DNA from: Okamejei kenojei
Taxonomy: Eukaryota
Assembly: GCA_035221665.1 (NCBI GenBank)
Contig: CM069164.1
Location: 14,260,001-14,324,000 of the forward strand
Reading direction: 5' to 3'
Length of the DNA: 64,000 nucleotides
The position numbers and the translations under genes were made by a program. The notes under the pieces are model-generated. The model did no database searches. It was not told the origin of the DNA and was given only the letters and a program-made list of their open reading frames with translations. Each line of letters begins with the position of its first letter. The stretch's first letter is position 1. This document shows positions 1,290-60,470 of this stretch, piece by piece.

Positions 1290-1560
1290 AGTGTAGGAAG
1301 GAACTGCAGATGCTGGTTTAAACCAAAGATAGACACAAGATACTGTGAGAAGGGTCTCGACCCGAAACGTCGCCTATCTCCTTCGCTCCTTAGATGCTGC
1401 TGCACCCGCTGAGTTTCTCCAGCATTTTGTGTAACCCACTGTGAGTAACTCAGCGGGCCAGGCAGCATCTGTGGAGAGAAGGGAATGGGTGGCGTTTCAG
1501 AAACGTCATCCATTCCTTCTCTCCAGAGATGCTGCCTGTCCCCCCGAGTTACTCCAGTGT
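1290..1560. repeat. Cluster of Penelope-tail/hammerhead-like units in both orientations
   Basis: GAAGGGTCTCGACCCGAAACGTC at about 1349-1371, and a palindromic pair at about 1443-1558. Confidence 0.75.
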
Positions 1561-2189
1561 ATATCTTAGGTCTGATGAAGAAACAGCTTCAGGCTGATGT
1601 GTCTCGTTAAAGCTCTGTTTCAATGCTGTGATTCCTCCAGGATATACTTCACATTACCTACACCTTCAGTATACCCTAGAGCATCACAAGCTTTCCCATG
1701 TCCAATAGATTTACAAAGGATTGGACGTGTAATAAAAAGACTAATTGATCCAGTTTGCTCTCCACGACGCAGGAAGTTACCTGTCGTCAATCCGATGGGA
1801 TTAAGGGGGCTGGCTTCTGCTCAGGTGCCGAGGGAACAACAAAAAATGTCACCAACTCCTTTTCTCCAGAGATTATGTCTGACCCACTGAGTTACTCCAG
1901 TTTTGTGTCCATCCCTTGGAGTTTGCCCTGTTGAGCTCGGCTTTATTTCAAAAGCAAGTTTGTTTTATTAATATCTTCAGCTGAGAAACAATGTCCCATT
2001 TGGGACCGCGATGGCACCGGTCGCTCAGGCTGATGAACACTTCTACTCTTTTGTTTTCAGAGTTCAATCAATTAGCCAATTAAGAATCAATGAATCAACA
2101 ACTGACAGCCCAGTGAACTAAGATCGCTGATAAAATTAGTTAGCAGTCTGCAAGGTTTTGATAACTTACTCTTTTATAAAAGATTTAAG

Positions 2190-3300
2190 GTCATAAGTGA
2201 TAGAAGAATTAGGCCTTTCGGACCATCAAGTTACTCTGATATCCAATCATGGCTGATCTATCTCTCCCTCCTAACCCCATTCTCCCCATAACCCCGGACA
2301 CCTGTACTAATCAATAATCAACCTCTGCCTTAAAAATATCCAGACTTTGCCTCCACAGCCTTCTGTGGCAAAGAACCCCACAGATTCACCACCCTCTGAC
2401 TGAAGAAATTTATCCTAATCTTCTTCCTAAAAGAACATCGTTTATTTCTGAGGCTGACTTCTAGTCCTAGACTCCAACTCGTGGAAACATCCTCTCCACA
2501 TCCACTCTATCCAAGCCTTTCACTAGTCTGCATGTTTCAATTAGGTCCCCCCTTATTTTTTCTAAACTCCAGTGAGTATGGGCCCAGTGCCAACAAATGC
2601 TCATCGTAGGTTAACCTACTCATTCCTGGGATAATTCTTGTAAACCTCCTCTGGTCCCTCTCCAGAGACAGCACATCCTTCCTCAGATATTATGCCCAAA
2701 ATATTCCAAATGCAGCCTTGCCAGCACCTTATAGATCCTCAGCATTACACCCATTTTTGTATACAAGCACTCTTGAAATAAATGCCAGCATTGAGTTTGC
2801 TTTCTTTACTACCGTTTAGACTTGCAGATTAACCTTTTTGGAACTAGCACTCCCAAGTCCCTTTCCATCTCCAATTTCTGGATTATCTCCCATCTAGAAA
2901 AGTCTATGCCTTTATTCCTACTACCAAAATGCATGACTCCACACTTGGCTCCAAATGGTATATTCCATCTCACACTTCTCTGCCCACTTTCCTAACCTGT
3001 CCAAGTCCTTCTGCAGAGTCCCTGCTTCCTCTACAATACCTGCCCTTCCACCTATTTTCATATAATCTACAAACTTTGCCACCAAACATTCAATCCCCTT
3101 GTCCAAATCATTAATATACGTGAAGAGTAGCATCCCTGGCACCAAGCACTGCAGAACTCTGCTAGCTGCGACAGCCAACCAGAAAAGGCCCCCTTTATTG
3201 CCATCTTGTCTTCTGCCATCCAGCGATCCATACTAGTATCTGCCCTTTGATACCATGGGGCTCTCATCTTCCTTTGCAGCCTCAAATGTGGCACCTTATC
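2190..3300 (-). mobile_element. CR1/L2-type LINE (HER1-like) 3' fragment with decayed RT
   Basis: ORF 2921..3178 LLFTYINDLDKGIECLVAKFVDYMKIGG...LQKDLDRLGKWAEK matches the RT YINDL/FADDTK region. Conserved tail ATCAGCCATGAT. Confidence 0.85.
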
Positions 3301-3819
3301 AATTTGCTTTTTTGTATCTTAACCCCCAGTACTTTATTCCAAGTCTCTTTGGTGCTTTTACCTATGGCATAGAGGAAGCGGGGAACCATTAATTCATCCT
3401 GAGGAAGAGGCATCTGAAACGACAGAAAGATTAACACTGAAGTATATAACCTCTTTGCAAATATCAGGTAAGATCTCTGGAAAAATGGAATCAATCACAC
3501 AATGCATTTTCCAAAACAGAATGTAATGGAATCAAACATGACTTATTCTGTCACAACAAGCCATGGTGAAAATTAAAAGCAAACCTGACAGCTTACATTT
3601 GCGTAAATAGACTGATTGTGGCACAAAATGGCAAAATAATGCTAAGCACAGAGCAAGACCATAATATAAACATGATCCGGCATTCTGTTGGTGGGCACGG
3701 CAATGAGTGGTGAAACTGGATCTCAGGCAGAGCAGTCTTACCTGTTGTTGCTCAAAGCAGGTCAGAATCACAGGAGAGGCTACAACAGAGGACATGTCAG
3801 GTACATTCCATCCAACACA

Positions 3820-4520
3820 GGAATGTCAGGTATCACATTTCAAGAGGAAGAATGAGGAGAGGCAATATAAACAAGAGGGCACAATTCCAAGAGGAACAAA
3901 AACAAACAAATTGCGGTTTATTTGTGTAAATTGTTGAAAGTGGCCGGTCAGGCTGAGACAGAAGTTAAAATAACAAGATTCCAGGCTTTATAAATAGATG
4001 CATATAGTACAAGAACAAGGAAGCCCCGACAAACATTATAGGACAGCAGCTAGTAGTTTACACTCATGGTCTATAGTCCAGTTTTGGGTGCTATACTTTA
4101 GGGAAGACCTGAGGGAGAAGTTGCATAAGAGATTTGTTAGAATGATTCTAGGGATTAGGAGTTTATTATTTGGATAGGCTAGAGAGATTCTTGGAACAAG
4201 GGACGTTGAAAATTGATCCAATAAAGGTATTGAAAATCATGAACGGTCTGGAGCGAGTGGATGGAAACATTTCCTGTTAGTGGGGTGGTCAGGAAACATG
4301 AACATACCATGAAAGTCATTGGCAAAACCACCAAAATTGACACAAGGAAAAATTGCCTTCGGTGGTAAGTGGTTGGGGTCTGGAATGCTCTTCTTGGGGG
4401 AATGGAGAAGGCAGACTGAATTTGGGTGTTCAGAAAAGCACTGGAAAAAGAGCTTGGAAAAATAAAATTGCATTGAAAGCATGCGGCTGTCGCATCAATT
4501 AGACCCGACATACTGCATGT
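3820..4520 (+). mobile_element. Old CR1-like LINE fragment
   Basis: Decayed ORF2 C-terminal motifs (GTCCAGTTTTGG, AGAGATTTGTTAGAATGATT, GTCTGGAATGCTCT). Confidence 0.6.
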
Positions 4521-5418
4521 CATCTTTGTGCTGTCTTTCACATTATTTCATGCTATGAACAGCTTAAATAGTAGACAAGATTGTTCTACCTTATTTCTGT
4601 TCTCCTCACAGCATACCGTTTTGCCAGCAAACTTGGAAATTGTACCGTGTCCTGAAGTTTACATAATTAATGTGACATGATATATTTAGCTGCCAGCGGA
4701 AGTAGTTGAGGCAGGTACAATAACATTTAAAAGACATTTGGGAACGTACATGCATGGGAGTTGGGCCAAACACACCAAATGGGACTAGCATAGATGGGGT
4801 ATCTTGGTTGACATAATTGGGCTGCAGGGCCTGTTTCCTTGCTGTGTGGCTCAGACTGGACAATATAACCAGATCCTGCTGTTGGGACGAGTGAACACAT
4901 CTGAGTGAAGTAAAATATCTATTTTCCGCATGCTCTTTTTTTCGCAAAAAGGGTACACAACTGACATACTTAAATATCCTTTCACTTCTCTAATGGTAAA
5001 AAAATAAAACAACTAATCTATTTTCAATTACACTGGCTCAGAAATAAATAATCACAACACAAAGAAATGCAACATTATTGCATTGGGGTATTTGTGGAAG
5101 CTGACAGTATGCAAGATGTCCCCAAAATGGATTTCACCTCAATCAGTATGGGATTTCCTAACATTACAAAAGGTAATGTTAATGGCTCATGCTTTCAATC
5201 ACATTTTGCTCAGACATTTAGACATATCTAAACAAAATGGACAAAAGCAATCTGGGAACAAAGCAACAAGACAATTTTCTGAAGTAGGGTCTCGACCCGA
5301 AACGTCACCCATCCCTTCTCCCCAGAGATGCTGCCTGTCCCACTGAGTTACTCCAGCATTTTGTGTCCATCTTCAGTTGCATTTTGATTTTTGGCCAGTT
5401 TAATAATATTTAGCCATT

Positions 5419-5670: not shown

Positions 5671-6619
5671 TAAACCAGCAATGGCAGTTCCTTCCTAAAC
5701 AATTTTATCTCGTATTCTAGGAGAAAGAAAATGGCGTCATTTGCTTGGTGTGTCCTCCCTCTGGTCCATACATCGATATTAAACAGCAGAAACAAGGGAG
5801 TTCTTGTTTCAGAACTTAATCTGCAATTACAGATCAAGCATCCAGTACTCTTGCCTGTGTTTTAAACTGTGTTGTGTATTTCAAGGATAGGATTACAGCT
5901 CATAACTCAACCATAAAATGCAGCGCTTAAGTGGTTCTATTTTAATATACAAATGCAACATTAACCTATTGAGATATATCAGCGCAACAAGACGCATATT
6001 TTTGAGTCTTAACAAAATCTGACAAGTAAATCTTGTCTGCCATAGTAAACACAATAAAGATCCGTACAGATTCATTCTTTCACACAATTATACAAACCAT
6101 ACCTCCAAAATAAAATTCTCGGAGGGTTCAACAGGATAAATTCTATGGACGTGTTGGGCTGAAGCGCCGATCTCTCTGCTGTAGGATAACAAATTAAAGG
6201 CTCACAGGAGAAAAGGTCTTGAACCAAAACTTCACCAAATCCTTTTCCCCAGAGATGTTGCCTGATCTGTTGAGGTACTCCAGCTTTTTGTGTCTATCTC
6301 TGGTGTAGACCAGCATCTCCAGTTCCTTCCTGCTCATAAAGGCCCAGAGGGCTGTGAACCTACATAATTTTCTACCCCAGCAGCTGTAGACCCTCAGATA
6401 TTCAATAGTGAAGTTTCAGCAACAACACATGTTTACGCACCATGGGAACCGAGAGGACAGTCCAGAGAGTCTGTGGAGGCGTCAGACGATCAGTGATGAT
6501 CTTATTGGAATCGATCCAGGGCATACTCCCACCTCTTTTCTCCCGAGGAACATTTACACTCCTTACATCCCCAACAGGCCACAAAGAGCACTCATGAAAC
6601 CAAACATCATTCAACATTT

Positions 6620-8317: not shown

Positions 8318-8402
8318 TCACACGGCCTTTCGATGATATTCTGGTGGTGCCACTTCATAATCACTTGGACTGAAGAGACTTGAAGCGTTCTTCACCAAGT
8401 AC
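8318..8402 (-). CDS. MORF4L1: MORF4L1 terminal coding exon 12 (YLVKNASSLFSPSDYEVAPPEYHRKAV*)
   Basis: Acceptor tttcag|, stop TGA at 8320-8318. The 12 exons sum to 975 nt (324 aa plus stop). Confidence 0.97.
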
Positions 8403-9149
8403 CTGAAAATGATGTGGGGTTGAAGAAAATAGAGTTACGAATAACAATTCAGAGTTACCAAGATGGTCAGTCACACCCTAATTTGCCTTCTCTATATTCT
8501 CCATATTTCTTTGGAAGCCAAACCTCTCAAAGAGGAAACACCAAACTGTCAGAGTTTAGTTCAACTTAAGCCACTGGAAGAGTAGGGCAGTTCTCTTTCA
8601 GCAACCCATGCACACTTGGAATGATATAGCTCAGAAATTCTAATGGAGAGCCCCCATGATACACGGATCTGACTTAAATGAAGGGTCGACTCAAATGAAG
8701 GACCAAGATAAGATTATCCAACTTCCCTGCAGTGCCTAGCCCCTGCAAACCAATCCAATCATAAAGGATGCAATTCCTAGTCCTGAGTGAAGCCACTAAC
8801 TGTAAACCAGTTGTAAATATATCTTTGGATCTTAAATTCACTAAATGTGAAATCATCTTTCCACTTGCTCTTCATTATGAACACATAACATTCTCAAATA
8901 CACTCATATGCTGGATCTAGTTTGCTCGAGGCAGTTTTAAATATGCTAAACTTGCAAGATATATATTGGCAATTTAAGGTCTACATGGACTCTGATGCAG
9001 CCCACATTTACACTGCACCTCCAATTTCTGTGCGTTGGATGCTCACCAAATCCTCCACCTCTCAACTGTTCCAACCCACACCACAAAAAGCTGTTGAGCC
9101 AGAGATAATGGATAGCAGGCAAATTTGTGAAAGAACCCCTATTTTTGCA

Positions 9150-10500
9150 CATTCAAGGCAGCAAACGGGAGGGCAAATATAAGACGTGAAATGGAGCTGG
9201 CATGTAAAGGTAAATCCTAACAGATTCTGCAGGCATACTAAGTGCAAAAAAGTGGATTGGGATAAAAGAGCCCCCCTTAAAGATCAACATGGCCATCTGT
9301 GTGTAGAGCCATAAAAGATGGGGGAGATATTAACTTAATGCTTCTCACCAGTCTCGACTGAGAATATCATGGAAGCCAAGAAAGGGAAGCAGAGGTGTTG
9401 TGATGTCTTAGATCAGGGGTCTCCAAGCTATGGCCAGTGGGCCACATCCATCCCGCCACGAGATTTTATCCGGTCCACAACAAGCTCTTAACACGTTCCG
9501 TGCAGCGGGCTATTTAACGGGTTCTGTGGTAGCGCAGGATCATACATGTCAGTTTGCCGTATACTATCAAGTTGAGGGTTTGTGTGCAGCTGCTGACAGG
9601 TTACCGTTAGTTGTACGTGACTAATACCCAGGGGAGCAGTGCTGCCGGAGCTCACCGGAGCGCCGCTAGTGGGTGTGTGGTCAGGGTAACCTGGTTGAAA
9701 GAGGAGGAAGACCCATCACTAACGAGGTTCCCTGTAGGAGGGGAGGAGCACTAGGACCCAGCAGAGTCAGACCACATGCTGTCTGCATCGTGGAGGTTGT
9801 GGGCCTGGTGTTGAGTGGAACTCTGGTGAGGTGATGGCTCTGGCCCGCTGGTGGCTGGTGGAGAGGCGAGGGTCGGTGGAATTGCTGGTGGGGACTAGAG
9901 TAGAGATACGGGTCGGCAGCAGCGGCCCTGGGAAGACAGTGAAGGTCAGCGACAGTGGCCTGTGAGCGAGTGAGTGGTTGACATTTATTTTTTCCTACGG
10001 CCTGCAAAATGTGCCAAATATATAAAGTGGCCCTTATGCTGAAAAGTTTGGAGGCCCTGTCTTAGATCAATATAAAAGACCAAAGAGGAGATATTGTCAT
10101 TTTGAAAGCAATTTTAGGTGGATAAATCCCCAGGTGGGCGCCTGCTACAAGATATCATTACGGTCGAAGGGGTCAGAAGAGATGCCCCAGAATATTACTT
10201 GGGTTTGCAGACATGGGTTATGGGGAGAGGTTAGATAGGCTGGCACTTTTTCTTCGAATGTAGGGGTGACTTTATTGAGGTGTACAGTGTCAGGAGGCAC
10301 ATGAATAAAGTGTAAGCACCCAGTATTTTCTGCAGGGTAGAGGATTGTAAAAATAGAGGACAGAAGTTTAAGGCAAGAGGGTAGAGATTTAAGAGGGACG
10401 TCAGGAGCAATTTTTTCATTCAGAGGATAGCCCTTAGCTAGAATGGGCTGCAGAGGAAATTATAGAAGTCGACACAATTATGACTGTTAAAATACATTTG
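9150..10500 (+). mobile_element. Old CR1-like LINE fragments split by the hAT MITE
   Basis: AAGGTAAATCCTAA..GATTCT, GGTGGATAAATCCCCAGG (VDKSPG), AGAGGACAGAAGTTTAAGG and related ORF2 motifs. Confidence 0.65.
9414..10059. mobile_element. Non-autonomous hAT (Charlie-like) DNA transposon/MITE, 646 bp
   Basis: Imperfect TIRs CAGGGGTCTCCAAGCT and AGTTTGGAGGCCCTG. Exact 8-bp TSD TCTTAGAT at 9406-9413 and 10060-10067. Nested in a CR1-like fragment. Confidence 0.88.
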
Positions 10501-10857
10501 TTTTCCCTTAATCCCAACCACTTCATCCGACATTGTACATGTATTCTTTACTGCCAATCCTTAATCCCTTGCTAAATTCTGTACTTGCTCAAAATTTCAA
10601 TCTACCACTTCTGATAATGACTACAAGGTAAAAACAGTTCATTCTCCACATGACCCGATTATTTTCCCAGAATTTAGTCCCTTAAGGCGATTTTCACTGG
10701 TATGCAGACCAGACTTTAAATGTTTGTCATTATGACATTCCACACAACTTCCTATATGTTACCCAGGCTGTAAGAACATTCACCCCATTATCCACCGTGT
10801 TTTTAAAGGCGTAGGAAATGTTATTGTTTTAGACCGAAGATAGACAAAAAATGCTGG

Positions 10858-11260
10858 TAGACAAAAATGCTGGAAAAACTCAGCGGGCAAGGCAGCATCT
10901 ATGGAGCGAAGGAAATTGGCAATGTTTTTTGGGTCAAGACCCTTCCTCAGACTGAAGAAGGCCTTTGACCCGAAACGTTGCCCATTTCCTTCGCTCCATA
11001 GATGCTGCCTCACCCACCGTGTTTTTCCAGCATTTGTCTACCTTTGATTTTCCAGCATCTGCAGTTCCTTCTTAAACACAAAATGCTGGAATAATTCAGC
11101 GGAACAAGCAGCATCTCTGGATAGTAGGAATGGGCGGCGTTTTAAGTCGAGACCCTTCTTCAGACTCTCTGAAGAAGGGTCTCAACCTGAAACATCGCCC
11201 ATTCCTTCTATCCAGAGATGCTGCCTGTTCCGCTGAGTTACTCCAGCATTGTGTGTATAT
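10858..11260. repeat. Two adjacent ~185-bp palindromes, each a head-to-head pair of Penelope-tail units
   Basis: 10858-11040 centred near 10950 (CTTCCTCAG-A-CTGAAGAAG). 11076-11258 centred near 11166 (CTTCTTCAG-ACTCT-CTGAAGAAG). Confidence 0.85.
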
Positions 11261-11296
11261 TTTTAAAGGCTTTGGGTATTTTGAAATTTTACTTAC

Positions 11297-11381
11297 TTTA
11301 AGAAATCGTGCAAGTAATTTAGCAGCAAGGCCAAACTCTTCTCATCCAAAGGCGTGTACGCTAGCATTGCTCCTATTCGCA
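11297..11381 (-). CDS. MORF4L1: MORF4L1 exon 11 (VRIGAMLAYTPLDEKSLALLLNYLHDFL/K)
   Basis: Acceptor taacag|, donor AA|gtaagt, 85 nt. Confidence 0.97.
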
Positions 11382-12201
11382 CTGTTAGAGAGAAGCTGGA
11401 CTTTAGAAGAAAATATTGTTACAGCACTCATTCCACAGAATAGAAGTGGGCTAATTAAAGTAGTTAGCCCGTGGGCTGATCAAAGCAGTTTGCCTATGCT
11501 TCACACAACTCTCCTTCAGTAATAACATCTCAGTGTCTCCAATTATTTCAGATATTTAACTAAATGCTTGTTATTCACTCCGTCTGGCAACAAGCCCCAC
11601 ATTCTCAGCACTCTGCACATTAGCAATCTCCTCAATTCCGACTGGATTTTTAGTAATTTAGTTTTGCCTTCAGACTGGATTATCCATGCAACCACCTGAT
11701 CAAATCCTTTTGTAATATAAAAGGGGTCGTCATCCTTCAGTTTTCTGCAAGCTCTGCTTTGTGCGTCCTTCTCTGATAAACGCGCTATTATTACTCTATT
11801 ATCTTCACACATCAAAGCATTGGCAATAGCAAAATGGACATATTTTAGCGTGGAAAATACCATGATACTCACTCCTTCACACATATTTGACCAAGTGAAT
11901 GCAATCAAAGTTCTCTAAAATGGTCCAGCGAGAAGCAACTGGGATGAAGTTGATTGTTTCTATTTTTTACATCAGGTTTCTAGCACCGGATGTTTTTGAT
12001 TTTATTTCACCTCATTTCTGAAGGGCAACTTTCTCCACACAGAGGGTGGTATGTAGTGGAACGAGCTGCCTACTTTCAAATGAGAAATATCAAACTGTGT
12101 TACAGAGGGCTGCAACATCTCCAGCTTCTGCAGAATGAAGGAACAAAACTCTGAAGACTCGGCACAGAGCAAAAATAATTCAGGAAGTTAATCAAACTTG
12201 C

Positions 12202-12374
12202 CAAACAATCGAAGGAGATGTGGTGCTCCGTAAATCTGTGCCATAGATGCATCAGGGTGATCTGCCAGGATCTCTGCATATTGTGGACGCTCAAATTTGT
12301 ACAGCAGCTGAGTCCCCAACATTACATTGAAGTATTCCTTTATTCCTGCAACTACTTCATTAACGGCATATTCC
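12202..12374 (-). CDS. MORF4L1: MORF4L1 exon 10 ([57 protein letters not shown])
   Basis: Acceptor tttcag|, 173 nt, non-canonical donor G|gcaagt. Core MRG motifs LLYKFER and [10 protein letters not shown]. Confidence 0.96.
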
Positions 12375-12594
12375 CTGAAAATGAAAAATCACAACTGAGC
12401 AACCAGGAGAACACCGCAATCAGTTTTTGTCATTAGAAATAATCAAAGTACCAGAGCAACCCCAAGATGAAGTTTGATAGTTTTATTTGGTAGATTGAGA
12501 GACAAGATTTTCCTGAATTTATATTCTTGGAATTCACTACCCCAAGGATCAGCAGAGGCAGAGTAACTGAATACATCCAAAATGCAGTTGCTCT

Positions 12595-13070
12595 GCCGGT
12601 CAGGCAGCATCTCTGAAGGAAATGGATTAATGACGTTTTGGGTCAGGACCCTTCTTCAGACTGATTGTAGTGTGGGGAGGGCGCGAGGTGAGAGACTGAA
12701 AGTGAGTTTTTAAAAAACATGACAAATCGGGGCCAGCAACAGGCAAGGAGGTTCTCCGCTACACTAATTGTTGGCTAGAGATGATGCAAGCCCAAGAGGG
12801 ATACATCTAAGTTTAGAACTAGTTAATGGACTTTTACAGGGGGGGGGGGGGGGGGAGAGGAAAGAGAGGGGTTTGTTGATGTTAACTAAAATATGTCCTG
12901 GTTTTTTCTCGTATCCAGCAACCCCCCCCTCCCCACCACTACAATCAGTCTGAAGAAGGTACCCAGCTCAAAACATCACATCCATTTTCTCCAGAGATGC
13001 AGCCTTACCTGCTGAGTCACTCCAGCACTTTGTGTCTAACTTTCATATAAACCAGCATCTGCAGTTCCAT
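12595..13070. repeat. Inverted pair of Penelope-tail units with ~250-bp spacer
   Basis: CTTCTTCAGACTGATTGTAGTG (12652-12673) mirrors CACTACAATCAGTCTGAAGAAG (12937-12958). Confidence 0.8.
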
Positions 13071-14206
13071 TATATTACATTCAAGATGGAGATTGACATT
13101 CAAATTGAACTAGAACAAAAGGTCATATGAAAGACGTGCTGAAACCAAGATTGAATTATCCAAAATATTATTAAAGGGAGGGTCAATTGGCCAAATAGTT
13201 TTATAATTTTCCAATATTAAAAATAATCCAATCCATACAGGTTCATATTGTTTGCCAACAATTCCCAAAGAATTGTTCAGAATGTTGCAGCTGTTCCTTT
13301 ATTCCATAGAATTCAGTAGACGGAGGACAAAGCATTGATAGTGAAGGTAAAACCCAATAGGAGAATGGTCAAGCATGAAACAAAGATAAAAGCCAAAAGC
13401 TGCTGAATCAGAACAATATGGGAAAATAAAGAAATGATTGAGAAATTAAGAGCATTGTATTAGTCTTCATGAAGTATACAGAAATGTTCTGTACCGATTC
13501 AAACAATCTCTATCTTATGTAAACTACAGAATTCTGAAGTGTTTGACAAGGTAGTTGCAGAGTTCTGGTGTGTAAAACCAGATTTCAAGAAAACAAGTGC
13601 TCTGGAGAAAGGTTGTGGGTGAGTAATTCAAAAGACAGAGTGTGAGATATTAATGGAATTGAGACATATTAATTGAAGAATCAAAGGATAAGGTTAGTAT
13701 AGTAAACTAACTCCAAGGTAAAAGAACAGCCATGTTTGCATTTAAGACTTGGTCCTGCTTCCATTATGTGATCCACAGATATCTTGAAAGTAATAATATC
13801 TCCACACTTATTTTAGTTCTGATGAAAGAACATTGAAATTAAATGTTATCATTACTCACTCAGATGCTCTCTGGGCTGCTAAAAGTTCCTAGCATTTTTG
13901 TTTCTTTCAAAAACAAAGAGATATTTTTGATTTCAAGCAAAACCATTCATCCAAGGTGGAGATGTGGAACAGATTCATGGAATGGTCACCGATTGTCAAC
14001 CCTAATGGGTCAGTCACTTTAGAGCATCTCAAGTTGCCAAAAGACATTTTCCATTTTCAAGAATGCTATCCTTACTATGGCAAGTAAAACCAGGAGGAAG
14101 GGAGCTCCAGAGAAAGGTCGTCTCTCTAGAGATCCCAATAAAAATTCCAGTTTTAGCTTCTCAGTATTTTAAAGTTATATAAGACAACAAACACAAATAC
14201 ACTCAC

Positions 14207-14298
14207 TTGTTATTGTCAGTGTTCCCACGTGACTTTTTGTAGTTAGCATACTCTTCCAGAACAGTGTCAACATTCTTTTTAGCAGGCAAGTGAAACAG
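14207..14298 (-). CDS. MORF4L1: MORF4L1 exon 9 (LFHLPAKKNVDTVLEEYANYKKSRGNTDNN/K)
   Basis: Acceptor ttaaag|, donor AA|gtgagt, 92 nt. Visible at the end of ORF 14203..14385. Confidence 0.96.
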
Positions 14299-15269
14299 CT
14301 TTAAAGACATATAATTGCTGGTTAGGATGTATAGCCATATTACAAATACATGAATGTTGGTCAATCCTGCAACATTAATTCTCAATTATTAAAAGTAACA
14401 ATCTACTCTACCAATTAATTGCAAATATATTTAAAATTCTAATCATATAAATAAATTTGTAGTTCACCGAACACATCTTTTATTTATCCAATCTCAGCAA
14501 TGTTTATTTTCCGCGATGTAAAGAGTGCAGTAACAATGGTCAAAACTCAAAGCCGTTTTATAATATTTAAAAAAAAAGTGGCTAATGTTTTCGAACAATG
14601 CCTCAAACGTGTTAACTAATAGACAGAACATGAAGAAAAATGTCAAGGAATTGCAAACAACATGTTGCACTTTTATATCATCAAGCAAGTGAAATGTGTC
14701 TGGAATTAGAATCAGAGGATAGGGCCATACAGTCCACCTCATCTCTGTGGACCCTACTACCAATCTATGCTAATTCCAAATGCCTGTGTTAAGCCATTCC
14801 TGTCCAAATGCCTTTTAAGCATTGTAATAGTACAGCGAGTCTCTGGTTACAAGAGATCTATCCATAGAACTGTCTGTGAACTACTTTTTCTGCAAGTCAG
14901 AAACAACTAATTTCAATGAAAGCTGATTAACATTAAAATTAATTTATTGTCTTTCTGTGTCATTACAATGGCGCAGAATCAGAAGGTCCCACATTGAATA
15001 ACTAGTTTTGATGGCTTTAAAGTGTCAATTTATGTTACAGGGTTTGATAATGTTACAAATGTCAATTGAAGAGATTTGCACGTCAAATCTTTTAAATAAC
15101 TTCATATATACATTTTTACTTGAAGACTGGATATCATTCAAATTTACTAGCTGCTACTCCAATTCTATAATTCCTGAAGGTGTTTGCATTTCTGTAACTA
15201 ACTTTTTTTCTTGAAAAATTGATGGGGGAATTTGCATAAAGTAGGGCAAGTAAATCAAGTCTCCTGAAA

Positions 15270-15850
15270 TCTGCCTCCTTTACTTCCTCTGGCAGCTTGA
15301 GCAGAATATTCATTACCCTGTGTGTGAAAAACAACCCCTTCAGATCTCCTTTAAATTTATACCCTCTCACCTTCAACCCGTGCTCTTTCCCTGCTCTGGG
15401 TAAAGATTTTAACTATCCTATCCTATCGATCCTATCTATGCCCATCAATTTTATAAACCTCCATGAGGTCACTCTTCAACCTTGTATGTTCTAGTGAGAA
15501 TAAGCACAGTCCACCCAATCTCTCCCATTGCTACAGCCTTCCATTCCAAGTAAAATCCTGGTGAATCTTATCTGCACTCTCTCTGTTGCTACCATATGCT
15601 TCCTCTACTGTGTTCAAATCTGTGCACAATACTCCAAGTATGTGCCAACCGATGTCTTGTCCACTCTTGTAGGTCAATGCTCGGCCTTTGAAGGCAAGCA
15701 GACCAATGCCTATCTATGTGCATCCCCACTTTCAGGGAGGTCCAGACTTGCACCCCGAGGTGAATATCATCGTTCCAGGCCCCTTGCCGTTTACTCTTTG
15801 CCCTAACATGTCCGTCCAAAGTGCTTTACCCCATACTTGTCCGAATTAAA
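15270..15850 (-). mobile_element. CR1-like LINE fragment
   Basis: KVRGYKFKGDLKGLFFTHRVMNILLKLPEEV in ORF 15134..15376. Confidence 0.7.
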
Positions 15851-17651
15851 TTATTAATTTCCTGTATTCAGAAAGAAACAGGCTACAACAGTTTACGGCA
15901 ATTTTTGCAATTAGGTATCAAAATGCAAATGTTATGCTCTAAAGTTACTGAACTAAAGAGATCTGAATTATTGGAGCATATTCACGTGTTGATACGTATT
16001 ATTGAAAACCCATCTCATTCACTATCTTTCCAGAGAGAAAAAAATGTCATCCTTATACAGTTGAGGGTTAAGAGCCTGTCCTCTGCCCTGTAAAACAGCT
16101 GAGCATCATGCAGCTCAAGAGACCATTAGGGAGGGACTGTATACATTGACTTGGACAGCAATATCAATGCCCAACAGTTGATCATTCACACATGCTCACA
16201 CACATCCATCCTCAACAACATATTGAACTTACTCTCCCTCACTGTAAAGCCCATTAGAAGTATAAAAGCTTTGACCATAGCTTGTGCAAAGTCAACTTCT
16301 TTATTGACCCCCTGACTAAAGAAACATTAGGTACTAAGCTCAAACCTCCATTAGTATTAGACTGACACAGCAATATTACGGTTGGTTTCAAAATGTAAGT
16401 CGTGTCCGTCCCGTCCCCTCCCCCAATGAGCAAAACGTTAGGAGACAAGGAAATGCAGATGTTGGAACCTTGAGTAAAAAATACAAAGTGCTGGAGGAAC
16501 CCAGCAGGTCAGGCATCACGAGAAGGGAATGGATAGGCAATGTTTCAGATTCAGGTTCTTCCAGAGAAGGTGCCCAACCTAAAATATCACCTATTCATTG
16601 CCTCCACAGATCCTGCCTGACCTGCTGAATTATTCCAAGCTTGTTTTATTCAGTGAAACGTGTTTACTAATCATTTCCAAATTATTTTTTTATCCATAGT
16701 TGCAAACCAAAGACTATTTTACTGTATGTTATGAAGTAATAAATTGAGCACATTTAGATAACAAAGGACATTTCCGGTAATATCCTATTAACTGACTATT
16801 TAATGAAATTACTTTCTAGATTCAATTGGATCTGGGAATGGAATTTAATACATTTTATCAGATGTAACATCCCCAGGGAAATCTTTTGCTTTAAGAACAG
16901 CAGTCATCACTTGCAAGATGCTTAATCTACACAATTTGCTTAGAGAGTGTGATCTCAGAGGCAAATTACAGATTACTGGAAACCAAAGTTGTTTGGAATT
17001 TCACCTTTCTATATACAACGAGAAAGGAAAAATGTGGGCAGCTGCTGGAAAATAAAAGGTAGTATTGGCACATAGAGCTCACAATTTTACAACGTGGCAA
17101 GGCTTTTGGAGACTTCTTCTACTATCCCAAAATGTGACACCACCACCAAACTGTCCTGCCTGCAATACATTTGTGACAGTCGTTAAACGTGTGGCTACAG
17201 GGAAATTGCAAATTTGGTGGCCTTTACTGCTTAAACATTTAATGGCAGTTTTGCTTAGAATTAGGACTGAAGCCCTGCAATCTTTCCACTCCATTTTCAT
17301 TGGTCTAACAGTCTGAACCCAAGATGAAAGACTACTAATATTGCTAAACAATAATACCCCTTTAAAAAAAAAAAACTTGAGGCCCACCTAATAAGGAAGC
17401 CCATTTCAACAGAGTAAATGCAAGGTATCCTGAGTCAGGACCCACAACAGTTCATCCTGCCTGAAAATCTGAGATAAACCAATAGTAAAGGAATTAAAAA
17501 AAAACTAAAATCACAAAATATTATATGAAGCAGCAGCTCAGCTCACCTACCTTTCCATTAAATGCATTTTTACAATTTATTTAAAACGCTCCCTGTAGCT
17601 GCAAGCCTTACTCTGTCGTTTAGGTTTAAAGCAAATGGGTGCAGTACTAAC

Positions 17652-17753
17652 CTGCTTTTGACGAGTGATCAGGTCCCAATCATCCACGAGCCATGGTTTC
17701 AACTCCTCTGGTATTTTTACCTTTACTTCAACCCTGTTCATAAATGTCTCCTC
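17652..17753 (-). CDS. MORF4L1: MORF4L1 exon 8 ([34 protein letters not shown]), start of MRG domain
   Basis: Acceptor ctgcag|, donor CAG|gttagt, 102 nt. Confidence 0.97.
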
Positions 17754-19762
17754 CTGCAGAAGTCAAAGAATCGCCAAATTAAGGATCCCCTCAGATATGT
17801 ATTTGACATCCATTTTGCAGTGCTGTTTCAAAATTCCCCATTCGCATACATTGCAATTATTTTTGTTCATTACTACAATTAGAAAACAAAAAACAACTTA
17901 TGCCCTCTCAAAGCTGTGACCAGATGAGGGTCCATAGGCATAAGCACCAGGTATGAGTTTGACGGGGTGCTACGACTGTACTCCAGCACTGTATACAGAT
18001 ATCTGGTTAGAATCCATCCTGCATTATTTTATTCAGTTATAGGAAGGATATTTTCACCTTGTGATGGACTGCAGGAACCATTACCAAAATCATACTGGAA
18101 GTGATGAAATGCTGGAGGCCTGGTTGCTCAGATACATTTTATATTCCTGCTAAAATTTGGTGCCTTATGCTCAGGGGTGGCCTTGAAATATTTTCACACG
18201 GTGGAGGCAGAAATCGAAAGCTCTTTTCCCACAGAGCTACGGAGTCAGGGGAGATATCTGAAAATTCCAACACTTGGGAATAGGGATCAGGAATATGCTG
18301 ATGGGGGCATGGTAATTAATTTATGGGACTAATGTGGCCCAGAGGCCACATTGTTGATCTGTATACACACACACATTTACATACTTTCATTGGAGCTGGG
18401 AAATTTAAATTAAATAAATACATCTGAACTTTACCCAAAAAAGTTTCAGAATTATTGTAAAATGCATGTTCACTTTTGGCATTCTAATCTGGTCCAGTCT
18501 ATGTGACTCCAGACCCACAACTAATCTCAGTTTCAGGGCTGTAAAATATAAGAATGAAATGCTGGTTTGGCCAGTGATACCAACATCACTTTTATAACAT
18601 TTTACTCACACAATCCCTCTTCCATTGCCTACCAGTGGTTCACGGTCACATCTGCAGAACGAATAAAAGCATTCCCCAAAACTGTCACCCAATCTAAGTT
18701 TGGTCTCCAGATGTGGAGGACACTGCACCGTGCGCAGCAAATGGAGCTTTCAATTTAATATCCTGTATAAGTAAATAACTGATGAAGTAAATATCTCGTA
18801 TACGTAAATAACTCAATAAACAAATGACAGTCACAACAAATTAATCACAAATTAATATTTGTTGGTGTTGCTTTGGAATTAACAGGCCGGCCCAGGTTCC
18901 TGCACGAGTGGCCAAGAACTATTCGTAACCCAAACAGTTCACGTAGAAATTGCTAAATGTGTTCCCACCATCAAACACATCCCACCAGTCTCCCAAATAC
19001 TGGGTGTACACAAGTTGGGTGTTTGTAAGTTGCCGGGTTTATGTATACTCTACGACCATCAAACTCCGTTTATTTATTCTCAGAGAATGTGGTGAACCAG
19101 TCCCCTTGACTGATGAAAGTGTTAACATTTTGTAGGGCTCTATGCCACCCATTCCATAGTGATCATGAACCATGAGACAAGGGGAAATAACACCCTGTCT
19201 TTTCTCCTCCTGCCAAGGCACAACATCCAAATAAGCATGCTTACTTGCAACTGTCTTTGGGCAGTGCTCAGGAGCCAAAACCACCCGTGACTTGTCATCT
19301 CCTGAATTTGATTCAAATTGTGACAGACTCTCACTTATTTCACATTGTCAATTCCCACTGCAGTTGAGATAAGCCATCTCAAAGTTGAATCCAGAACATT
19401 TAGCTCTACATCTTGATTGATCAGGAATCTCAATGTGACACTGTCAGAGGGAGGGAAGTGGGCCAATTGACTACTGAAATAACCAACATTAAAATGCAAC
19501 ATTTTGAATGTATGTGTGCTAGTACCAGTTTTTTAAATGCATATCTTTCTGCAATGTACTGTATGATAGATAACACATCACATTAAATGACCCATCTCCA
19601 CTGGGCAACACTGATACATAACAGCACCACTAGGCAATAATGCAGTAATGTTTGGTCATACACTAGTTAAGAATTAAATTTATGCCAGCGTAAATTCTGG
19701 CGTTGCTACTGGATATTTGGCACACATTCAGTCACTATGTCACATTCCAACAAACTACATAC

Positions 19763-19851
19763 ACTTTCCATTGTGGGGTCCACTCTTGCCCTTTTCTTCC
19801 TGGGTGGTTGTGGAGTTTCACTGGTGCTACTTCCATCACCAGCTGTGGGGG
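19763..19851 (-). CDS. MORF4L1: MORF4L1 exon 7 (APTAGDGSSTSETPQPPRKKRARVDPTMES), contains the basic NLS-like RKKR
   Basis: Acceptor ttttag|, donor AGT|gtatgt, 89 nt. Confidence 0.96.
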
Positions 19852-20334
19852 CTAAAATAAAAAAAAGTTAAACAGCTTACTTGTAGGCAATTTTCTGCTA
19901 CAAAACAGCATTATTACTTTCAAAAAAAGTTTTCATTGTAATGTAACTGTCTAATCCATCTGAAAGATACAACATATCGACAGTTTGCAGACAGGACTGT
20001 CAAAGGTTTAGGCCAATGTATAATGTGTACAATCACCTTGTTAACCACTGATGAAGTGCTGCACAAACTGCCGAGAGAAATGGTCAAACCAATTAAGAAG
20101 CTGTAGCCATCAGAATACACACATCCCAAGAATAATACCACCAATCAATCTTGAATGTGCTTGATTAATACAAGTAGACATCAGCTAGGCAGTTTGAAGA
20201 CTATTCCAAAGAGAGGAAAACAATATTTGTCAGCTTACTTCATTCTGCAAATCCTCCAAACCCCAAGCCCAAAATATTTATTGGATCTTGGATATCCACA
20301 GAGGAAGTTGCCATTTCATTCACTGTCAATAAAC

Positions 20335-22477: not shown

Positions 22478-22503
22478 CTTTCTGTTTATTCTTCTTTGTT
22501 TTT
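22478..22503 (-). CDS. MORF4L1: MORF4L1 exon 6 micro-exon (KTKKNKQK)
   Basis: Acceptor tttcag|, donor G|gtaagc, 26 nt. Needed to keep frame between exons 5 and 7. Confidence 0.93.
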
Positions 22504-38769: not shown

Positions 38770-39112
38770 CTTAAGCCATAGAAGCAGAATTAGGCCATTC
38801 GACCAAATTAGTATGCTCTGACATTCGATTATGGCTGATCTATTTTTCCATCTCAACCAATTTTTCCCACCATCTCCCTGTAACTTTTGACACCCTTACC
38901 AAGCAAGAACCTATGAATCTCTGCTTTAAAAATAGCCAACGATCACCTCCACCGCCGTCTGTGGCAATTAATTCCAGATTCACCACCCTCTGGCGAAAAA
39001 AAAACAACTTCATTTCCATTCTAGGGGTACGTTATTTTATTCTAAGGCTGCGCCCTCTGGACCTAGACTATCCCACTACTGCAAACATCCTTTCCACATC
39101 CACCCTAGACCT
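38770..39112 (-). mobile_element. CR1/L2-type LINE 3' end
   Basis: Same tail family (GGCCATTCG...ATGGCTGATCTAT...CCAGATTCACCACCCTCTG). Confidence 0.75.
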
Positions 39113-53745: not shown

Positions 53746-53884
53746 TACTAGCCTTTTGATACAACCTCATTTGTTTTGCCATTTGATCTCATCTGCCTTC
53801 AATCCTGCCACAGACCTTTGTTATTTTCCAATCTCTGAACTGATTTAGGAATGGCTTAATTCTATTTTTTGCATAGCATAGGTT

Positions 53885-56109: not shown

Positions 56110-56425
56110 CATAGAAACATAGAAACATAGAAAATAGGTACAGGAGGAGGCCATTCGGCCCTTCGAGCCAGCACTGCCATTCATTGTGATCATGGATGAT
56201 CGTCCCCTATCAATAACCCATGCCTGCCTTCTCCCCCTATCCCTTGATTCCACTAGTCCCTAGAGCTCTATCTAACTCTTTCTTAAATCCATCCAGTGAT
56301 TTGGTCTCCACTGCCCTCTGTGGCAGGGAATTCCATAAATTCACAACTCTCTGGGTGAAAACGTTTTTTCTCACCTCAGTCTTAAATGACCTCCCCTATA
56401 TTCCAAGACTGTGGCCCCTGGTTCT
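56110..56425 (-). mobile_element. CR1/L2-type LINE 3' end
   Basis: (CATAGAAA)x3 tail and GGCCATTCGGCCCTTCGAGCCAGCAC. Confidence 0.85.
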
Positions 56426-58512
56426 GATCCTTCTTCAGACTGATCGACTAGTAGAGTGGTAGCTGATATTAAGTGGTGCAAATGGTGGAATCTGATAAGG
56501 AATGAAGATGTGAGTGAAATGTAGAACCAGAGGGAGGAATAGCATGGACTTTCTACATTACACTCCCACCTTCCTTTCTTATCAGATTCCACCCTTTGTA
56601 CCCATTTGTCCTCCATCTCCAGCCTTGGTTTCTATCTCCATCTGACTTTCCCCCGCCTGCCAATTCATCCTTCGTCACCTGCATCCACCTATCACTACCT
56701 GTTGCCCCAGCACTTCTCCTCACCTCTTTCTATCTCCCCTCTACTCCACCAGCCTGAAGAAAAGTTCCAACCCAGAAACAAGCTCCTTATATTTATGGCT
56801 CTTTGTTTTGGTTTCCTTCATGAACCTTTCCACATTACTCAATCAGATCCCCATATAATTGTAAGGACCTCTACCTCCTCAGCTCTACAGCATTCGCTTT
56901 ATCAGGAAAAGGAGCCACAAAGTGTGGCATTTCTGCTGATTGTCACAGCTTGCCAGTTCTTGCTTTGTTCTTGCAAATCTTCTTTACACCTTTTCCATTT
57001 ATTTGCAACCTTTTCAGAACACAGGGGGGCACAGCAGTATGTTATCAACATTTTTCAATATGTTAAAGTGTTAAGTATATTAAGTGTTAAGTATAGAACA
57101 TGTTTTTTAATTCAGTGAGGCAGAAAGATGATTATCTGTTGTTCGATCTGTCACCGCTAGAGGACCCCCAGAGCATATGTGCAGGCAAAGGGATAGCTGA
57201 TGTCTCGGGTCCAGAACTGCATCAGGACTGTTAATAATTATACAAATAGAGCACAGCGACAGACACTTCTGATCCCATCCATGTCGACCATCAATTGCCC
57301 CCTATGCTTGTATGCTTGTATGCTTGGAACTTACTTATCTCTCTCCGCAAACTTAATTAATAGGTTTAGGAGGGGGTCATAGCACTTCAATAGATTTTTA
57401 GAATCATTTTTTAGATAGAAAAATAATCTATTAACGTAGTATGATGTAATTTTTTAGAATTGATCAAATAAACACCAGCTTCAAATGTGGCTCTATTCAA
57501 ATATCGAAATTTAACTCAGATTTCGCATCAGAGCCAAAATTGTGAGAGTCATAATATTTGCTCGTTAATTCTCAACTTCGGAAGTTTCATTTCATATAAT
57601 TACAATAGTACACCACAGTAGGGGGGAAATATATTCCACTTAATTATTTTTAACAATTAATAAACGGTTTGCTTAATAAACAGTTGTAAAACTGTTTGCC
57701 AAATACTAATCGGGGTTGTGATGTTAATGGCAAGTCAGCGATTGTCGTTTAACCTATTGCACGATGTGAAACTCTAACGTCTCATGGAAACAATTATTGA
57801 ATTAAATCAAATGTTAGTGACATAAATTGAAATAGTTCATAAGTGATAAAGAAATAAACACTCTACAATATAATTGCAGCGTGAACATGTCTATTTATTA
57901 ACAATTCAAGAGCACTTTATATGTTTTCATGATTCACTTTCTCGACATAGGGACGACCCAAGGTGGGGAGGTTCTGGGAGAAACCCTGCAAGGTCACCGC
58001 CATCACAATGATATTCCCAGGCAGTGGACATCTGACCCGAGGCTGCCCGGGGTGACGCGGTCCCATCTCCATTCCGCCCCTTGACCTAAATAAGTGGAGT
58101 GAAAGCGATGCAGTTATCCCCTCGGACCCCTTAGACTAATGAATTTGATGATCACACGTTGCCTTCGTTTAAGGAACAAGTTGCAACTTCTAAAACATTG
58201 CACGGAGCTTCGATTTTGCAGTCTCTAAAGTGAGAGGGAAAAAGATCAACCTCAGTCTAAACCCATCGCGCTTCTGCATTTAATCACACATGTTCGAGTG
58301 AAGGGCGTTCATAGCAGGGATCTTTTTCTTTCGAGATGGTTATTCTACATCGGATTTATCCAGTTGTTATTCGCCGTCACAACAATCCCGATACCTTCCG
58401 TCAGCAGCCTCCCAAGCCAGTCGGTTAATTGGGGTTTGGCTGAGTGCTGCAGTTGGAGGGACCGTTTTCACATCGACTGTTAGAGTCGGAGTCTCGGTTG
58501 TAATGTGCGATT

Positions 58513-59601: not shown

Positions 59602-59948
59602 CTCTTCCAACTTGCTGCATTCGAGTGGCGCCGGCCGGACCAACTAATGAGATCGTAGACAACTCGGGAGCCAGCGCCAAACAAAAAAATCCTTTTTAAC
59701 AAGTACATAAATTAAACTTTTTTTTTGTTCTGGGCAATTGCAGCTGACAGTCCGGCGGGCAGCGTTGCTACAGACCTTGCGGCAGGGTCCACCTGGGCGC
59801 CAGTTGCCGACCCTGTACTCTGAAGACAAGGCGGATCTCCGGTTTGAATCAACTCAACCTGGACCGCCCGCCCTCTCCCCGCTCCCATTGGCCTCGCCTT
59901 GGATGGGGCAGGTCCATCCGGCAGCAGAGGCGGCTCGCCCCTCGGCTC

Positions 59949-59969
59949 TGTGCTGTCCAGGGTGCTGAA
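59949..59969 (-). promoter_or_regulatory. RE1/NRSE (REST-binding) element upstream of the RXFP3-like gene
   Basis: Minus strand TTCAGCACCCTGGACAGCACA versus consensus TTCAGCACCnnGGACAGCGCC. CCAAT (59891-59887) and GC boxes (59864-59873) lie between it and the ATG. Confidence 0.85.
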
Positions 59970-60225
59970 TGAAGCCATCTCTTCGATGGGGGGGGGGGGG
60001 GGGGGGGGGGTAGGAAGAATATCTTTGCAAATTCTGGGGGAGATTAAAAAATAAAGCTCTCGATTGTTGCGCAAGCTATGTGTTTATTTCCATTTGTTTA
60101 GTTTGTACAATTAATTAATAAATGTGGGAGTGGGTATTTCATAGTCGAAGCAGGAGGACAGCGGGAGGGGAAGGGCTGTTGTGGGTCGAGGGTCCCGACC
60201 TGGCCGGGATCAGACGTAGGAAGGG

Positions 60226-60470
60226 TGTGTAGGAAGGAACTGCAAATGCTGGTTTACACCGAAGACAGACACAAACATGCTGGAGTAACTCAGCGGGACG
60301 GGGAGTATCTGTGGATAGGAGGAATGGGTGACGTTTTGAGTCGAGAGCCTCCTTCAGATTCAGAGCGACCACCAGTCTGAAGAAGGGGCTCGACCCAAAA
60401 CGTCCACCCATTCCTTCTATCCAGAGATGCTGCCTGTCCCGCTGACTTACTCCAGCATTTTATGTCTATC
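60226..60470. repeat. Palindromic Penelope-tail pair upstream of the RXFP3-like gene
   Basis: Minus unit 60226-60357 and plus unit 60377-60470 (CTGAAGAAGGGGCTCGACCCAAAACGTC). Confidence 0.8.

Follow-up and report, generated by a model that had tools for sequence, protein, structure and literature searches.

The hammerhead-bearing repeat units in the window, the 64-kb stretch of skate DNA that was analysed, are most probably short by-product insertions made by the reverse transcriptase (RT)/GIY-YIG protein of a high-copy Neptune-type Penelope-like element (PLE), with hammerheads that have decayed and are probably inactive. Judged by its sequence, the unit is the 3' end, or pseudo-LTR (pLTR), of such an element in the skate, and the units are 3'-terminal pLTR pieces of a known kind of element and probably not an independent ribozyme element. 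As a family they are ordinary, representing another vertebrate PLE with a minimal hammerhead, and their main use is in skate repeat annotation, to which they bring a load of about 40 pieces per 64 kb. What PLE hammerheads do and how short and inverted PLE insertions arise are standing questions in the field, and it is the geometry of the ends that is most worth following.

The repeat unit and its parent element

With an iterated nhmmer profile (E<=0.01), 41 matches to the repeat unit, including arms and fragments, were identified in the window, and none in each of five shuffled windows searched with the same profile. An earlier note on this DNA had named 14 positions of the unit and counted about 20 copies. 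The unit is present at all 14 positions, and the count agrees with the 18 of 41 matches that cover the whole motif, from C3 through the base after the cut site. The high copy number proposed there is supported by 78,000-90,000 contigs per DNA run matching the unit in three organisms; read depth over the bin of the endonuclease end amounts to 32-80% of that over the unit's top bin and is not taken as copy number. Copies bearing ORF sequence stand to short ones in the window at about 1 to 10. Head-to-head inverted pairs, in which many copies are arranged, and a bimodal 3' end of the unit were absent from the earlier description.

A Penelope origin of the unit, as proposed before, is supported. 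The three GIY-YIG fragments reported for this region are real, and each terminates in the unit, 214-295 nt past the end of the ORF (Table 1), so that the motif sits in the pLTR behind a PLE ORF. A C-terminal GIY-YIG endonuclease with CCHH-type residues is supported by tblastn to a PF01541-bearing protein, and Pfam on the five broken endonuclease frames of the window alone gave no match. The endonuclease is preceded by a CX4CxxC linker, which fits the CX2-5CxxC pattern of Neptune and Nematis (PMC8557442); the window holds broken 3' fragments only, without RT, and the linker motif is the sole basis for the distinction between these two clades.

Table 1. Positions of the host gene and of PLE-derived features in the window (E, tblastn against a metagenome PLE protein)
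Feature	Position	Strand	Remarks
MORF4L1 (MRG15) coding span	about 8318..44524	-	PF05712
Four-arm array, two adjacent head-to-head pairs	1291..1570	.	pairs 1291-1441 and 1443-1570
Solo unit, short 3' end	5278..5379	+	among closest to intact; A9 mutated
Solo tailed unit	6208..6332	+	imperfect 12-14-bp target duplication
Four-arm array in MORF4L1 intron, two head-to-head pairs	10824..11274	.	joined at or beside TCAG-T-CTGA palindrome overlapping CUGA box
Head-to-head pair, 3' UTR on both arms	12544..13069	.	units 12663 minus, 12946 plus; tail on plus arm only
Head-to-head pair	16442..16648	.	tail on minus arm only
PLE 3' fragment, subfamily B: broken linker and GIY-YIG, 295-nt 3' UTR	20335..21530	+	E 4e-8; ends in decayed unit with tail; nested ~210-bp repeat at 20515-20726
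Subfamily B unit with about 75 nt of 3' UTR	27860..28032	+	start approximate, by eye
PLE 3' fragment: broken GIY-YIG C-terminus, 221-nt 3' UTR, unit	28087..28697	-	E 4e-13; C3 near 28184; short 3' end (no tail); outer junction common to two related organisms
Solo unit from C3	31509..31602	-	8-9-bp target duplication in another repeat
Solo unit from near U4	33028..33132	-	internal deletion, tail, 7-bp target duplication
3' UTR piece and hammerhead	37838..38030	-	truncated just past cleavage site
Inverted PLE remnant, hammerhead deleted from both arms	39340..39690	.	minus arm: endonuclease piece and unit tail; plus arm: 3' UTR piece and unit tail
Two older-subfamily copies	43205..43460	+	43219 match, 43381 weak match; stem I strands unlike subfamilies A and B
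Head-to-head pair	45993..46128	.	14-bp target-site duplication around it; tail on minus arm only; short microhomology at junction
Solo tailed unit	47422..47549	+	GAAA box destroyed
PLE 3' fragment: Cys-rich linker (CX4CxxC), broken GIY-YIG, 3' UTR	48263..49056	-	E 5e-21
Hammerhead unit of the preceding fragment	48346-48286	-	3' end cut short
Unit from just before palindrome	49298..49380	-	internal deletion, tail
Head-to-head pair	49966..50168	.	tail on plus arm only
Complex array	51243..51590	.	inverted tail remnant, tailed plus-strand unit, tailed minus-strand unit
Head-to-head 3' UTR arms, both stopping inside hammerhead	56421..56790	.	weak matches
Head-to-head pair	60226..60471	.	tail on minus arm only; plus arm (60377) with G12 mutated at CpG

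Among unrelated contigs of metagenomes, a search with the motif alone resulted in 84 loci, a count that includes repeated samples of one insertion. A related endonuclease end was identified in 33 loci, 28 of which have the motif behind it at a distance of 54-116 nt and on the same strand. Locus L056 contains a 961-aa frame with RT similarity directly behind the motif, its RVT_1 match (E 5.6e-6) being under the curated cut-off. A word-based protein search found nothing among longer proteins, and a scan of viral contigs gave 0 matches. The search of representative proteins resulted in 23 weak matches; one of nine scanned contains RVT_1 and a weak GIY-YIG, and two further ones match unrelated families (7tm_1, PKD).

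Hammerhead anatomy and decay

The earlier parse of the motif into CUGANGA, one extra A, a stem II with G10.1-C11.1, GAAA, ACGU and a GUC triplet is correct for the consensus, with stem II better read as 4 bp and a 4-nt loop. The consensus passes a hammerhead descriptor with the CUGANGA, GAAA and UH boxes in type I order, and the extra nucleotide after A9, the G10.1-C11.1 pair and the palindromic stem III are all present in the unit. The anatomy of a minimal type I hammerhead is thereby borne out by the consensus. Non-CpG cells of the core are off consensus in 9.3%, versus 16.9% elsewhere (p=0.016). Stem I consists of 2 bp in subfamilies A and B, for which a stable duplex is not predicted. Of 74 metagenome copies, for which stem I lay outside the search pattern, 59 have a stem I of 3 bp or more. 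In the aligned sequences the inner two pairs of stem I covary, with two-sided changes in 7 and 9 of 22 rows. For stem II, the covariation check suggested in the earlier note gave a weak result, with 1 two-sided change and a bias from the search pattern.

An Rfam search of the window gave no hammerhead match; the matches to miRNA families correspond to the inverted pairs, all under the gathering score, and were rejected. RNAalifold on 11 full units predicted one 4-bp hairpin with zero compensatory pairs, so that a conserved downstream structure is not supported. For the subfamily A consensus, a competing hairpin is predicted.

None of the window copies passes the strict descriptor for an intact hammerhead, even when no stem I is required; as a control, 80 of the 84 metagenome loci pass. 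The two caveats attached to the motif before, namely substitutions in each copy examined and a very short stem I, thus hold more strongly than they were stated. G12 is mutated in 15 of 29 copies. The hammerheads in the window copies have decayed and are probably inactive. In the source elements, the motif would have been selected as a dimer-type or protein-assisted minimal hammerhead, which would have decayed after insertion, with the loss of CpGs at G12 and G16.2 as the main route, and the subfamily A consensus would additionally be shut off by its predicted hairpin.

Ends of the copies and a proposed mechanism of insertion

The 5' ends of the copies pile up just upstream of the hammerhead, both in the skate window and in distant PLEs. 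In the window, 17 of 30 fall within one 21-nt stretch (p 0.001), or 13 of 23 when one arm per pair is counted (p 0.007); the stretch was picked after seeing the data, and a scan statistic was applied. Among the metagenome loci, 20 of 24 5' ends lie in the pile-up. Diverged 3' UTRs can escape detection, three ends scored automatically at -16 to -23 being longer by blastn or by eye. All four runs show loose contig ends at 28189, but these do not count as proof of a hotspot, because subfamily differences start at the same base. The TCAGT at the skate 5' edge resembles an Initiator motif; this reading suits the skate edge and fails for the metagenome families.

The 3' ends are bimodal, at about 92-111 and 124-128+ in the window and at about 59-69 and 101-124 nt past the motif in the metagenome loci. 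Truncation at the 5' end, an inverted copy at the 5' end and a 30-40-bp tail were all identified among the window copies, and target duplications at p<0.05 were found for 4 of 18 tested events. A tail on exactly one arm is present in 6 simple pairs and not in 5 complex ones, a difference which is not significant, and it was rejected as a rule.

The following mechanism is inferred from the biochemistry of an Anolis PLE and from the end anatomy in the window. The PLE protein would nick the target and begin cDNA synthesis downstream of the hammerhead, at either of two internal sites that lie about 65-70 and about 100 nt beyond the cut site; depending on the site, the 3' end would be short or extended by a ~33-nt tail. 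The cDNA would pass through the uncleaved hammerhead and mostly stop within about 10 nt of the CUGA box, less often extending to 3' UTR and ORF sequence of a tandem transcript. Priming on both strands of the target would give two cDNAs that are joined head to head via microhomology, often at the palindrome overlapping the CUGA box. The position of the 5' pile-up, upstream of the hammerhead and not at the cut site, suggests run-off copying of uncleaved RNA; that the cDNA stops frequently near CUGA because the RNA 5' end lies there is given somewhat less than an even chance.

A more general proposal, which we consider rather unlikely as a whole, is that the RNA of Neptune-type PLEs starts at the 5' edge of the hammerhead and that the short units are its regular run-off product from both priming sites, inserted singly or as twin-primed inverted pairs, as a rule from skates to distant animal PLEs. 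The template would never be cut, and the dominant skate lineage would have switched its hammerhead off by the competing hairpin at very high copy number. If this were true, each genome would be a fossil map of the PLE start site and both priming sites, and cleavage would be dispensable for PLE success. With a pile-up before the ribozyme and none at the cut site in two distant groups, the model of an uncleaved template with internal priming becomes testable. Neither a 5' pile-up just before the hammerhead of PLEs nor a strong-stop or twin-priming account of PLE ends was found in the literature searched, which was largely without subscription papers.

A possibility to be taken seriously, although held tentatively, is that the pile-up reflects RT fall-off or template switching at a structure (past stem II, at the palindrome TCAG-T-CTGA or at a bound protein) of a long tandem RNA, with the units being ordinary 5'-truncated PLEs with a hotspot. 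This competes with the run-off step alone, and its estimate covers that step. Four pair junctions are centred on or beside the palindrome (10948, 11166, 16562, 50055), and in the metagenome copies a predicted upstream hairpin, which pairs with the core, spans the zone of their breakpoints. However, the palindrome is missing from the metagenome families, the solo copies bounded by duplications (6208, 31602, 33129) start at the same place with no fold-back needed, and in both data sets the 5' ends have a sharp upstream edge and a downstream tail, as expected of run-off. In D. virilis, the start site lies far upstream, about 120 nt from the intron end, where the hammerhead begins; this agrees with a stall and speaks against a run-off start at the hammerhead edge. 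There is a slim chance that the CAG directly upstream of CUGA acts as a 3' splice site, like that of D. virilis Penelope, with splicing bringing another 5' strand that completes stem I, so that the ribozyme would be active only in spliced RNA. Although subfamilies A and B differ in their upstream sequence, both have a pyrimidine-rich tract and CAG ahead of the core, and in D. virilis the end of the intron coincides with helix I of a hammerhead with a 2-bp stem (available text of PMC4209133), but solo copies have no common upstream exon, no deletion ending at AG was found among the window copies, and the AG is missing from the main metagenome families.

The earlier note had read the units as an independent non-autonomous family of the retrozyme or SINE type, which was not sustained. 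It is improbable that they form a dedicated family, whether PLE-dependent and SINE-like or a monomeric retrozyme, with short masters and an RNA from the hammerhead onward. Fairly discrete 5' and 3' ends and the large excess of short over ORF-linked copies in the window would suit such a family, and both putative non-autonomous PLE derivatives (PMC8557442) and PLE-derived retrozymes (bioRxiv 10.64898/2026.07.22.740005) have been described. However, head-to-tail arrays with a hammerhead in each unit are absent from the window, contigs elsewhere contain just a few tandem-like joints, and Rfam identified no tRNA, 5S or 7SL match as a Pol III-type head. The 5' ends spread over about 30 nt, and 0 of 41 lie at the cut site, the expected start of a self-cleaved monomer. 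Subfamilies A and B each contain intermingled short and long copies (131 of 500 and 500 of 500 shuffles as low), and in the window tree, whose resolution is low (32 short rows, only 2 well-supported branches), short copies form no clade apart from the ORF-linked ones. In the metagenome tree, the labels are partially clustered (11 changes versus 19 shuffled; 0 of 500) and one five-row clade holds short copies only, so that some dedicated short lineages may exist. For the copies inside MORF4L1, which were correctly noted before, lie in its introns and comprise 17 of the 41 matches, ribozyme activity in the pre-mRNA is unlikely because none of them is intact and neither strand is favoured (9 sense, 8 antisense). 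That some of them, alone or as dimers, cut or regulate this pre-mRNA is extremely improbable, even with nine copies in sense orientation, a unit density of 0.47 per kb inside the gene versus 0.86 outside, and an Anolis PLE hammerhead that cleaves upon addition of PLE protein (available text of PMC11167929); neighbouring partners are moreover inverted and would form long hairpins, not double hammerheads.

Comparison with known systems

Minimal hammerheads in the pLTRs of metazoan PLEs were described by Cervera and De la Pena 2014 (PMC4209133; statements here follow its available text). The skate unit shares with them the core boxes, the extra nucleotide between 9 and 10.1, G10.1-C11.1, the palindromic 15.2-16.2 and the pLTR position. 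They occur by the thousands per fish, frog or coelacanth genome, mostly as single dispersed motifs ascribed to truncated PLEs and with some opposite-strand pairs, an arrangement common to the skate units. In contrast, stem II has 4 bp in the skate unit and 7-8 bp in the Schistosoma families, and the 2-bp stem I of the skate consensus falls short of the usual 4-5 bp, with D. virilis also having 2. Skates are not named among the hosts in that text, and no paper reporting hammerheads or Neptune elements from skates or other cartilaginous fish was found in a literature largely without subscription papers.

With the Neptune clade of EN+ PLEs as defined by Craig et al. 2021 (PMC8557442), the skate element shares the C-terminal GIY-YIG, the CX2-5CxxC linker and CCHH-type residues, as well as 5' truncation, an inverted truncated copy at the 5' end and a 30-40-bp tail that is often one-ended. 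Inverted pairs and the tail are described marks of truncated PLE insertions, and the existence of two 3' ends and target duplications is likewise known from PLEs; all of these count against a retrozyme or SINE reading.

For the Anolis Poseidon element PAc (Frangieh et al. 2024, available text of PMC11167929), a hammerhead upstream of two RT start sites that set the tail is shared with the skate element as proposed here. Uncleaved RNA serves as the template there and both target strands are extended, like in the model proposed for the skate PLE. However, PAc belongs to the Penelope/Poseidon clade, is without the linker present in the skate PLE and has an ORF from stem II; a pile-up of 5' ends just before the hammerhead, as found in the skate copies, is not described in that text.

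Animal non-LTR retrozymes (Cervera and De la Pena 2020, PMC7229834; Li et al. 2026 preprint, 10.64898/2026.07.22.740005), with one chondrichthyan genome among their reported hosts, are likewise non-coding, contain a type I hammerhead, are kin to PLE pLTRs and can occur as dispersed monomers. They form head-to-tail tandems of mostly 150-450 bp with canonical efficient hammerheads and circular RNAs, whereas no window copy contains a canonical intact type I hammerhead, and the skate units, of 100-135 bp, occur singly or inverted, have PLE ends and bear a minimal motif that has decayed.

The repeat unit and its hammerhead ancestry

The unit was found at each of the 14 coordinates listed in the earlier note. 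An iterated profile search identified 41 matches in the window and none across five shuffled windows, and 15 further weak matches (E 0.016-9.6) contribute a few old copies. Numbered along the consensus, C3 stands at position 6, stem II pairs 14-17 with 22-25, G12 is position 26 and the cut falls after 33; positions 6-34 are fully covered by 18 of the 41 matches. The stretch 28040-28800 was matched at 80% likeness by 89,159, 90,071 and 78,306 contigs, which are not copy numbers, from DNA runs that represent three coded organisms, and the outer junction of the insertion in this stretch is common to two of the three. Because of these counts and this junction, the unit family is seen to be very abundant and to predate the split of these species.

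When metagenome contigs were searched for the core motif only, 84 loci emerged, 33 of which contain a related endonuclease end. In 28 of these 33, a count that includes some insertions repeated across several samples, the motif lies 54-116 nt behind that end on the same strand. Stem I has at least 3 bp in 59 of 74 metagenome copies (four other-family loci and contig-end copies left out), though it was absent from the search pattern. Thirteen rows from the window and 9 from metagenomes were selected by hand and aligned; in this alignment the inner two stem I pairs showed two-sided changes in 7 and 9 rows. The stem I covariation score was 0.292, against 0.165 after shuffling and 0.02-0.13 in slid controls, scores of a kind that kinship inflates. 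Among the window copies, with six old or partial ones left out, 9.3% of 234 non-CpG core cells were off consensus versus 16.9% of 1946 elsewhere (permutation p 0.016); the hammerhead reading thus withstands the check on core conservation set out in the earlier note. Since the non-core positions include subfamily differences, the lower core divergence reflects constraint on the source elements.

A 2017 paper reportedly described hammerheads of Penelope-like elements (PLEs) cleaving as dimers. The repeat and its ribozyme ancestry are real, and the kind is already known. The hammerhead anatomy agrees with the min-HHR that Cervera and De la Pena described (PMC4209133), with dispersed single motifs left by truncated PLEs and also opposite-strand pairs. 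No paper on skate hammerheads was found in a literature search of incomplete coverage. For an old-subfamily copy at 43381-43420 (+), the flanks could pair as a stem I of 6 bp interrupted by a single bulge, which suggests that older skate lineages had a fuller ribozyme.

Parent element and origin of the short units

A GIY-YIG C-terminus was identified in three broken window fragments, two of them with a CX4CxxC linker. They match a metagenome PLE protein (E 5e-21, 4e-13 and 4e-8), which itself matches PF01541, and the hammerhead follows their ORF ends at 214, 221 and 295 nt. Judged by the linker criteria in Craig et al. (PMC8557442), the element probably belongs with Neptune or Nematis, not Penelope/Poseidon; no RT remains in the window. 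One metagenome contig carries a near-complete PLE (L056:10-2899), whose 961-aa open frame lies directly behind the hammerhead and shows RT similarity, the Cys linker and an endonuclease end. This element is a candidate for biochemistry.

The short units are probably by-products of the PLE. Short and ORF-linked copies are intermixed in both skate subfamilies, A (131 of 500 label shuffles as low) and B (500 of 500), in a window tree well supported in just 2 of 29 branches, and this argues against a dedicated short family. In the metagenome tree, both kinds occur in most clades, yet the short and long labels are clustered (0 of 500 shuffles) and one clade consists of short copies only, as a dedicated family would have it; that alternative is regarded as unlikely. 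The earlier note had called the units retrozyme/SINE-like. Retrozymes are defined by tandem units, canonical hammerheads and circular RNA (PMC7229834; preprint 10.64898/2026.07.22.740005), and the skate units lack the two of these features that were tested, tandem units and canonical hammerheads. With no tandem arrays in the window, no Pol III-type head in the unit and no canonical hammerhead, the label was not supported.

Ends and junctions of the insertions

Inspection of the window by eye gave eleven head-to-head pairs of full or partial units. Short microhomologies join several of them, and four have their junction at or beside a TCAG-T-CTGA palindrome. The metagenome PLE families contain such inverted head-to-head pairs as well, with junctions about 10-25 nt upstream of the hammerhead, at loci L005, L007, L031, L050, L058, L064, L080 and L083. 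The 3' ends are bimodal, with groups about 33 nt apart in the window and about 45-50 nt apart in the metagenome families. The stretch by which the groups differ is the PLE tail, which in the Anolis PLE is bounded by two RT start sites. It is present on a single arm in six simple pairs; five complex pairs depart from this pattern. Of 18 events, 4 carry target duplications of 7-14 bp.

For 33 arms the 5' ends were scored automatically, 8 partial matches being unscored. Thirty of these have their end in the range -50 to +45, and a single 21-nt window around CUGA takes in 17 of the 30 (scan p 0.001). With one arm per pair it takes in 13 of 23 (p 0.007). Among 62 scored copies from the metagenome loci, the end lies 2-25 nt upstream of C3 in 28, 26-88 nt in 4 and further in 30. 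Once families that lack an ORF-linked reference had been dropped, together with a few rows that were repeated or lay at contig ends, 24 ends remained within 90 nt, and 20 of them shared one 21-nt window. The upstream edge is sharp in both sets, and none of the 41 window matches has its 5' end at the cut site. We infer that the PLE templates were uncleaved, in agreement with the Anolis result. The cDNA would most likely run off the 5' end of the PLE RNA, and run-off there is tentatively put forward as the source of the pile-up; stalling at a structure is a possible, slightly less favored explanation. In D. virilis the intron ends at the hammerhead and the start site lies about 120 nt before that end (PMC2377424), which shows that run-off at this point does not hold for every PLE. 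No paper on the pile-up was found in a literature search of incomplete coverage, and a text search of the three files available for PMC11167929 returned nothing on it.

Ribozyme activity, MORF4L1 and neighboring features

A strict hammerhead descriptor, which recovered 80 of the 84 metagenome loci as a control, gave no match on either strand of the window, even without stem I. The consensus passes it with a 2-bp stem I and fails with 3 bp. G12 is changed in 15 of 29 window copies, chiefly through CpG decay. In subfamily A, the bases past the cut site duplicate the 3' strand of stem II; the predicted fold pairs them with the stem II 5' strand (P 0.92), hiding the core, at -10.1 kcal/mol versus -4.8 for stem II alone. 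For subfamily B, the prediction is divided (0.45 versus 0.38). The window copies are probably inactive as ribozymes. The hammerheads of source elements may act with protein help, since cleavage by the Anolis ribozyme depends on its protein (PMC11167929).

MORF4L1 is encoded by the minus strand, between about 44524 and 8318, and contains 9 sense and 8 antisense unit matches. With no strand bias and no intact copy, a role of the units in the gene found no support. A four-arm inverted array at 10824-11274 stops some 20-35 nt short of the MORF4L1 exon 11296-11379, at its splice donor; in the pre-mRNA it would form two double-stranded hairpins of about 90 bp, a possible RNA-editing substrate.

Other features of the window
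Feature	Position	Strand	Remarks
Relaxin-3 receptor 1-like GPCR, single exon	58513-59643	-	92% identity to Leucoraja erinacea
tRNA gene, intact-looking	50759-50831	-	Rfam RF00005, 65 bits
Tc1/mariner-type transposon remnant	62501-63897		92-nt inverted arms; transposase HTH frame 63185-63697
Second dispersed repeat, ~210 bp	20515-20726, 30295-30507, 31704-31839		
Third repeat family	34208-34575, 44811-45220, 52682-52939, 56115-56426, 5419-5671		
Inverted arms, MITE-like	26189-26537		76 nt, 86% complementary, 197 nt apart; GC-rich intronic stretch

The window is skate DNA, the encoded GPCR being 92% identical to a relaxin-3 receptor of Leucoraja erinacea. The second repeat, which we take to be SINE-like, has one copy inside a PLE fragment, and the unit at 31509-31602 has another copy as its target. 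The frames of the third family presumably resemble LINE (CR1/L2-type) 3' ends, and the MITE-like arms are unrelated to the unit.
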